From IMG/VR virus record IMGVR_UViG_2724679544_000004: DNA of 6,788 bases. The stretch is one strand, 5' to 3'. The notes under the pieces are model-generated. The model was not told the origin of the DNA and ran no database searches. It worked only from the letters and a program-made list of their open reading frames with translations. Shown piece after piece: positions 1 through 222 of the stretch. A program made the position numbers and the translations under genes. This DNA is from a virus (Duplodnaviria > Heunggongvirae > Uroviricota > Caudoviricetes). Within the stretch, counting starts at the first letter, position 1; every line of letters begins with the position of its first letter.

Positions 1-61
1 CATCAGATGGCTGCTTAAAAAAAGAACAAATGGTAGTGTCCGCTATTGCCAGTACACCTCA
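1..61 (+). mobile_element. Terminal 61 bp of a putative IS3-family insertion sequence (element end at position 61, body lying left of the window)
   Basis: Positions 1-61 are the exact reverse complement of 6728-6788; identity stops at 61/62. Read outward from the window the repeat starts TGAGGTGTACTGGCAATAGCGGACAC, which resembles the IS3 terminal repeat as I recall it (TGATCTTACCCAGCAATAGTGGACAC) and ends in the TGA/TCA typical of IS3-family termini. Frame 1 ends with a TAA at 16-18, compatible with the 3' end of a transposase ORF. Not verified by search. Confidence 0.5.
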
Positions 62-222
62 GTCAGATATGTCAGCAGCCCAAACAGCAGACTCCCCAGC
101 ACGCCTATTGCCGCCCACTGAGACGGGGAAAACCTGTCCAGCAACTGCAGGAACCAGTAGCCCGTTCCCACCGCTGACGTGGTGTATGACACACCTGTTG
201 TGATTTTTTCCATCTGGTCCAT
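43..222 (-). CDS. Class II holin (phage 21 S21 / EssD-EssQ type pinholin), C-terminally truncated and fused to 5 codons from the terminal repeat
   Basis: Translation [59 protein letters not shown] matches my recollection of S21 (…[51 protein letters not shown]) up to TYLT. Dual-start Met-x-x-Met motif; SD GGGAGA about 7 nt upstream of the ATG at 220-222. The ORF-track extension to 327 begins with GTG and is not supported. Confidence 0.85.

Follow-up and report, generated by a model that had tools for sequence, protein, structure and literature searches.

At the left end of the 6,788-nucleotide stretch of DNA analysed here (the window), a gene for a phage-21-type pinholin departs from the sequence of its family at the very point where a repeat begins that recurs, inverted, at the other end. 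This raises the questions of what the repeat is, whether the gene is truly cut there in the genome, and what became of the lysis function of the prophage to which it belonged. By exact-protein look-up the window was found to be the reverse complement of the whole of draft contig LAJW01000149.1; LAJW00000000 is Shigella flexneri 3a strain BS1061, Haiti 2014 (PMC4606844). The features at its two ends are these:

1-61, minus strand: terminal 61 nt (IRR end, TGAGGTGTACTGGCAATAGCGGACAC...) of an IS600 copy running leftwards past the contig end, 100% identical to annotated IS600; a full 1264-bp copy stands here in the finished chromosomes CP054892.1 and CP026098.1
43-222, minus strand: truncated class II (phage-21-type) holin/pinholin ORF, 59 aa; codons 1-54 native (222-61), codons 55-59 (EVYWQ) and TAG stop (60-43) from the IS600 right end
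6469-6774, plus strand: ydfV fusion ORF; native codons 1-87, then 14 IS600-derived codons replacing LLSRRRVSGDLTCR and its stop; junction 6729/6730
6728-6788, plus strand: terminal 61 nt (same IRR end) of a second, inverted IS600 copy running rightwards past the contig end; bases 6728-6729 (TG) common to native ydfV

The truncated pinholin gene

The 59-aa ORF matches Pfam family PF04971 (Bacteriophage P21 holin S) with 82.5 bits (E 2e-23; gathering score 26), and the match covers positions 1-54 of the 64 in the profile, as against 1-63 in the intact 71-aa E. coli homologue. In an alignment with three intact 71-aa holins, those of E. coli STEC388 (WP_000372595.1), K-12-type EssD and the S protein of Stx1 phage phi-O153, it is collinear with all of them, free of gaps, up to T54. 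The preliminary description, which had an S21-type holin following its family up to this residue inside the second transmembrane segment, is thus borne out by both profile and alignment. The M1/M4 dual-start motif (M1-D-Q-M4-E-K) is kept, and by its collinearity through T54 the ORF is predicted to have the two transmembrane domains (TMDs) and dual start of a class II holin. After T54 the intact proteins continue with NLYFKIREDRRKAARGE (in the form NLYFKI(R/K)EDRRKAARGE), whereas the window has EVYWQ and a stop; the last 17 codons of the holin are lost and five IS600-encoded residues stand in their place. The charged tail has indeed been replaced, as had been described, and its 6 basic and 3 acidic residues have given way to 0 basic and 1 acidic. 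What is lacking is a complete TMD2 ending in a basic anchor (K56 in S21-68 numbering) and followed by a positive cytoplasmic tail.

The switch to EVYWQ-stop had been placed at positions 58-61, where the terminal repeat begins, and this is accurate: codon 54 (ACT) occupies 63-61 and codon 55 (GAG) 60-58, the right-end repeat of IS600 starts there, and base 61 is common to holin and IS600. The 3' remainder of the holin in the intact gene is 54 nt, AACCTGTATTTCAAAATCAGAGAGGACCGTCGTAAGGCTGCACGGGGAGAGTAA, its start being written (G)ACTAACCTGTATTTCAAAATC. The sole other change relative to the closest intact holin is V31F (codon 31, window 130-132) in the loop between TMD1 and TMD2, which is absent from the three aligned intact homologues. 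An NCBIfam search of the window holin gave no model match. RefSeq entry WP_040234639.1 is exactly the 59-aa fusion and is named 'class II holin family protein [Shigella flexneri]', with no pseudogene, partial or truncation flag.

The terminal repeat is IS600

The repeat search returned inverted arms at 1-68 and 6721-6788 (68 nt, 96% complementary), in each of which about 61 nt belong to IS600 and the other 7 nt are a partial chance match of native sequence. The similarity of the native DNA to hundreds of E. coli prophages begins exactly at window position 61 and gives out at 6729 near the opposite end. Window 1-62 matches, at 100% identity, the ends of elements that carry the annotation 'IS3-like element IS600 family transposase' (2,232 records at 99% identity or more), and the terminal inverted repeats start with TGAGGT in addition to being identical to known IS600. 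In CP054892.1 both copies are full length (1264 bp), lie in inverted orientation and differ from each other at 4 positions; the transposase is 385 aa long and matches PF01527, PF13276 and PF00665 (HTH and rve/DDE), so the approximately 1.26-kb orfA/orfB organization is present as well, and a programmed frameshift is annotated in the IS600 transposase of E. coli 95_0274 (NZ_CP074785.1). The terminal repeat of the window is therefore the mobile element IS600 of the IS3 family.

We note that GTCAG abuts the IS600 right end at both inner junctions (62-66 and 6723-6727) as a 5-bp direct repeat, which explains why the repeat search gave arms of 68 nt and not of 61 nt. This is probably due to chance, since the letters are native on both sides and read differently in the frame of the IS, and since the repeat suits neither an IS600 duplication, which is of 3 bp, nor the pattern of a replicative inversion.

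Occurrence of the junction

Both contig ends stop 61 nt into IS600, the left one 42 nt past the stop codon of the fusion, because the assembly broke at this multi-copy element. A window that is a whole draft contig with such ends is typical of repeat-broken assemblies, and the junction might be thought a chimeric contig end at a collapsed repeat, the gene being intact in the genome. Against this, the 59-aa ORF and the identical junction lie inside two finished S. flexneri 3a chromosomes, FDAARGOS_713 (CP054892.1, with 3 differences from the window over 6788 positions) and FDAARGOS_74 (CP026098.1), with a full 1264-bp IS600 after it, and they are found again in CP178302.1, in another draft contig and in short contigs from independent sequencing runs, the contigs all running directly into the IS600 end. 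The chance of an assembly artefact is consequently negligible.

The holin::IS600 junction was not found in any of 5,426 complete E. coli genomes, in which the best matches begin at window position 61, and none of the 424 phage records with a homologue has the EVYWQ tail. A natural full-length holin with this end, which would have spoken against truncation, was thus not encountered; the 59-aa sequence was found only in S. flexneri-type contigs, always running into IS600, and WP_040234639.1 is recorded from S. flexneri only. The junction in CP178302.1 (labelled Escherichia coli strain ECMA0423, 4.44 Mb) is 99.6% identical over 3.6 kb; it is otherwise seen only in S. flexneri, and in this genome an IS1 is nested in the IS600. 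CP178302.1 is perhaps a genome of Shigella type that has been labelled E. coli.

A fragment of a cryptic Qin-type prophage

Between the two IS600 copies the window contains the following:

62-6727, no strand assigned: 6.67-kb island of Qin-type cryptic lambdoid prophage between the IS600 copies, ydfV-ydfU collinear with K-12 Qin
978-1313, plus strand: IraM anti-adapter-like (PmrD family) gene, 111-aa ORF, named from relatives; on the opposite strand within the late region
1339-1528, minus strand: sRNA STnc100 (Rfam match, 132 bits)
2225-2301 and 2403-2478, minus strand: tRNA genes, Arg-TCT and CAT anticodon, in the order listed
2622-3443, minus strand: intact Q-type antiterminator, 273 aa, PF03589, upstream of the truncated holin

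The minus strand of the island carries relB, relE, hokD, rem (frameshifted), a 92-aa ORF, ydfU (DUF968), rusA, the Q antiterminator gene, tRNA(CAT), tRNA-Arg(TCT), STnc100, a split DUF1737 gene and the truncated holin gene; of these, relB, relE and hokD are intact. Q-type antiterminators normally drive transcription of the late (lysis) genes. The gene order of Qin (ydfV / relB-relE-hokD-rem-ydfU-Q...holin) is present, and over the 2.9 kb from ydfV to ydfU the island runs collinear with K-12 Qin at 93% identity, while the rest of the island (rusA, the 273-aa Q, the tRNAs, STnc100, the iraM/PmrD-like gene, DUF1737 and the holin) is about 98-99% identical to other E. coli prophages. The island thus shares the overall order from relB through Q to the holin with K-12 Qin, in which relBE-hokD-rem-ydfU are accompanied by the lysis region essD/essQ-ydfR-rrrQ-rzpQ. 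It differs from K-12 Qin in that its Q-to-holin part (rusA, 273-aa Q, tRNAs, iraM-like gene, DUF1737) is a different mosaic module, and in that everything outside codon 87 of ydfV and codon 54 of the holin is replaced by IS600 in the window.

Several smaller features of the island deserve mention. The ydfV fusion ORF is 101 aa long, by coincidence the same length as intact YdfV. STnc100 and the two tRNA genes sit between Q and the holin, as in the late regions of Stx phages; the CAT tRNA is called Met by ARAGORN, and the equivalent E. coli gene is annotated as tRNA-Ile. The DUF1737 gene (372-733, minus strand) is split into ORFs 530-733 and 372-533, and the same region of E. coli STEC388 holds an incomplete DUF1737 pseudogene and a hypothetical protein. 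The rem gene (5223-5473, minus strand) has a 1-nt deletion at about 5364 relative to K-12 rem (83 aa), giving overlapping ORFs of 41 aa and 50 aa, which is further evidence that the island is decaying.

No integrase, repressor, replication or structural/morphogenesis genes are present between the IS600 copies, so the question of prophage inducibility is moot. What survives is a piece of a prophage that was already cryptic, which is far more than a lysis defect. The proposal of a lysis-defective prophage was right to the extent that lysis genes are missing at the locus, but what remains here is a 6.67-kb Qin-type leftover and not a whole prophage.

Absence of the lysis genes downstream

In intact relatives the holin gene is followed by ydfR, the rrrQ lysozyme gene and a lysis protein gene. 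The 6,788-nt window has no endolysin or Rz gene, as had been remarked, but this absence is by itself no evidence of loss, since the contig that makes up the window ends in a repeat. The evidence comes instead from the finished genomes. BLAST with the intact reference region (holin 3' end, ydfR, rrrQ lysozyme and lysis protein) gave no match out to 10 kb to either side in the finished S. flexneri 3a genomes, and in CP054892.1, CP026098.1 and CP178302.1 the DNA beyond IS600 is unrelated, with neither the SAR endolysin nor the Rz/Rz1-type spanins of a lysis cassette after the holin. The repeat being mobile, with full 1264-bp copies in the finished genomes, and the gene not continuing beyond it there, the truncation stands. 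With the 3' end of the holin and the genes downstream of it gone from this locus, the lysis cassette has been dismantled; that a copy of them was relocated elsewhere in the chromosome is less probable than their deletion.

Beyond the holin-side IS600, CP054892.1 has the start of an unrelated DUF1376-type replication gene that is cut by IS2, then a DnaC-like gene, nin-region genes and a second Q gene; this DNA is part of another lambdoid prophage. The other prophages of the strain surely carry lysis cassettes of their own. The reciprocal junction (IS600 left end joined to the holin 3' remainder) had no matches in species-representative genomes, a set with few Shigella-type genomes, which makes this weak evidence.

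DNA flanking the IS600 copies

The outer flanks of the two copies were read in finished genomes, the BS1061 contig itself ending within IS600. A simple IS600 insertion would be flanked by a 3-bp direct target-site duplication, and neither copy has one in the finished 3a genomes (flanks att/ctg and gac/ctt), indicating that both arose through later recombination or deletion and not by simple insertion. Of the insertion or rearrangement originally suggested, then, the cutting of the gene by IS600 holds; simple insertion does not, target duplications being absent and the island being inverted relative to its chromosomal flank. The identity of the element as IS600 is unaffected by the missing duplications.

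In CP178302.1 the truncated holin is followed by 924 bp of IS600, counted from the right end of the element, and then by IS1, partial ydeQ, ydeP and safA. In E. coli K-12, along the direction of holin transcription, one meets ydfR, rrrQ, rzpQ and the remaining part of Qin, next dcp, marRAB and lsr, and after these ydeT-ydeS-ydeR-ydeQ-ydeP-safA; the ydeS-to-ydeN orientation in one comparison locus (L013) fits the K-12 order. The CP178302.1 junction is thus collinear with the E. coli chromosome and of the deletion type. In FDAARGOS_713 and FDAARGOS_74 the ydfV-side IS600 is bordered on its outer side by the 3' part of ydeS and then by ydeR, in the opposite orientation, which is what is expected if the island was flipped from an arrangement of truncated holin, IS600, partial ydeS and ydeR.

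For both junctions a simple inversion by way of the flanking IS600 pair was considered, and it accounts for the ydeS side only; it fails at the other flank, where the DUF1376 replication gene cut by IS2 is wrongly oriented for the native Qin neighbour of ydfV. The target-duplication patterns of replicative inversion and of a composite transposon do not fit the flanks either. The bracketing of the 6.67-kb segment by two full-length, near-identical, inverted IS600 copies does recall Tn5 and Tn10, and the segment and its IS600 copies might accordingly be a mobile unit, with the holin truncation marking the edge of the captured DNA. Such a transposon is very improbable given that the outer flanks, att and ctt, form no target duplication, that the island is found in only one genomic context, and that ydeS/ydeR and (in CP178302.1) ydeQ-ydeP-safA are from the chromosomal neighbourhood of Qin itself in E. 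coli K-12, in an order of the deletion type that argues for decay in place.

Other IS-associated structures occur at and near the locus, and IS1, IS2, IS600 and an IS629-type end are all found within 20 kb. A 516-bp unit made up of 24 nt of an IS1 end and 492 bp of ydeR/ydeS occurs three times in tandem in FDAARGOS_713 (441-1988 of its locus) and twice in FDAARGOS_74 (957-1988), a difference that is either a real amplification or one of assembly. In E. coli 95_0274 (10053-11316 of its locus) an independent IS600 of the same orientation sits between intact ydfV and flxA, 123 bp downstream of the place of the S. flexneri ydfV junction; it may reflect a regional preference of IS600, or an older insertion that was followed by an adjacent deletion in Shigella.

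Does the fusion protein still make pinholes?

The fusion resembles the phage 21 pinholin S21 (S21-71 antiholin and S21-68 holin) in family, dual start, Gly/Ser/Thr-rich TMD1 and TMD2 core, and differs from it in having no K56 anchor, no net positive tail and no SAR endolysin and spanin genes after it. According to a systematic truncation study of S21-68, made in a Functional Nanopore screen (bioRxiv 10.1101/2021.04.20.440580), K56 anchors the S21 helix at the cytoplasmic membrane interface, and the C-terminus of S21-68 beyond K56 is largely dispensable for pores, an engineered S21(1-56) still being pore-forming. The same study reports that at position 56 of S21(1-56) Lys can give way only to Arg, function being reduced by His and Glu and all but abolished by hydrophobic residues. 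From the holin start M4 onwards the fusion has 56 residues, the length of S21(1-56), and like it has both TMDs; S21(1-56) as described there, however, keeps N52-L-Y-F-K56, where the fusion has E-V-Y-W-Q. The natural protein therefore equals S21(1-56) with N52E, L53V, F55W and K56Q, and has no basic residue after TMD2. Judged against these published results, the decisive loss would be that of NLYFK with its K56 anchor and not that of the charged tail beyond K56, and by this comparison loss or impairment of holin activity in the 59-aa fusion is likely. The stronger argument for lost lysis function is the missing endolysin and spanin genes.

The contrary reading is that EVYWQ replaces NLYFK conservatively and that the 59/56-aa protein still forms pinholes and is retained, for example as a Q-dependent depolarising toxin beside hokD and relBE. 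Its length is exactly that of S21(1-56), which was reported to form pores, Y57 is conserved, V and W for L and F keep the hydrophobic/aromatic pattern, the dual start, TMD1, most of TMD2 and an intact upstream Q gene are all kept, and RefSeq calls the fusion an ordinary holin. The position of K56, on the other hand, has no positive charge, and in the S21-56 background the lysine is reported to be replaceable only by Arg; a Glu is gained at the membrane boundary, V31F is an additional change, and no endolysin partner adjoins the truncated gene. The neighbouring genes are decaying (the rem frameshift and the split DUF1737), and the fusion is limited to one clonal S. flexneri lineage, so that its persistence needs no selection. 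We consider a functional short pinholin unlikely on this balance. A little less probable still is the bolder idea that EVYWQ by accident recreates a minimal 56-residue pinholin that depolarises the membrane when the intact Q fires, making the locus a stand-alone toxin module beside hokD and relBE rather than a dead gene.

Proposed history of the locus

We favour inactivation of the gene, and the account as a whole, with IS600 in the pinholin of a Qin-type prophage, IS-mediated loss of the downstream lysis genes and an IS600 by IS600 inversion of the island, is very probably correct. In it, IS600 (1264 bp) inserted at codon 54/55 of the pinholin of a Qin-type prophage in S. flexneri serotype 3a. 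The reading frame runs on into the IS600 right inverted repeat and gains EVYWQ-stop, keeping TMD1 and most of TMD2 at the cost of the cytoplasmic end of TMD2 (NLYFK, with the membrane-anchoring lysine) and the positive tail. An IS-mediated deletion reaching from the holin to the ydeS/ydeQ fimbrial genes would have removed the 3' end of the holin, ydfR, the SAR endolysin gene rrrQ, rzpQ and DNA beyond. Recombination between two inverted IS600 copies would subsequently have flipped the 6.67-kb island, with more IS1 and IS2 events later. Around the directly observed junction, IS600 identity, lack of adjacent lysis genes and deletion- and inversion-type flanks, we infer the order insertion, deletion, inversion as the most economical one, from two lineages only.

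Significance

The event is routine IS600 pseudogenisation in the course of Shigella prophage decay, and is of a kind already known. It agrees with the IS decay seen in Shigella through expansion of IS1, IS2, IS600 and IS629 in its gene truncation, its IS by IS deletions and inversions and its lost target duplications, and has no unusual feature. Its main relevance is to annotation, WP_040234639.1 being listed as an ordinary holin though it is the product of an IS600-truncated pseudogene. The holin::IS600 junction could be used to mark the lineage of serotype 3a-type strains, and the natural fusion is a ready-made test of the need for the K56 anchor of the pinholin in vivo. For Shigella flexneri, the locus is one more case of IS-driven decay and rearrangement of a cryptic prophage.
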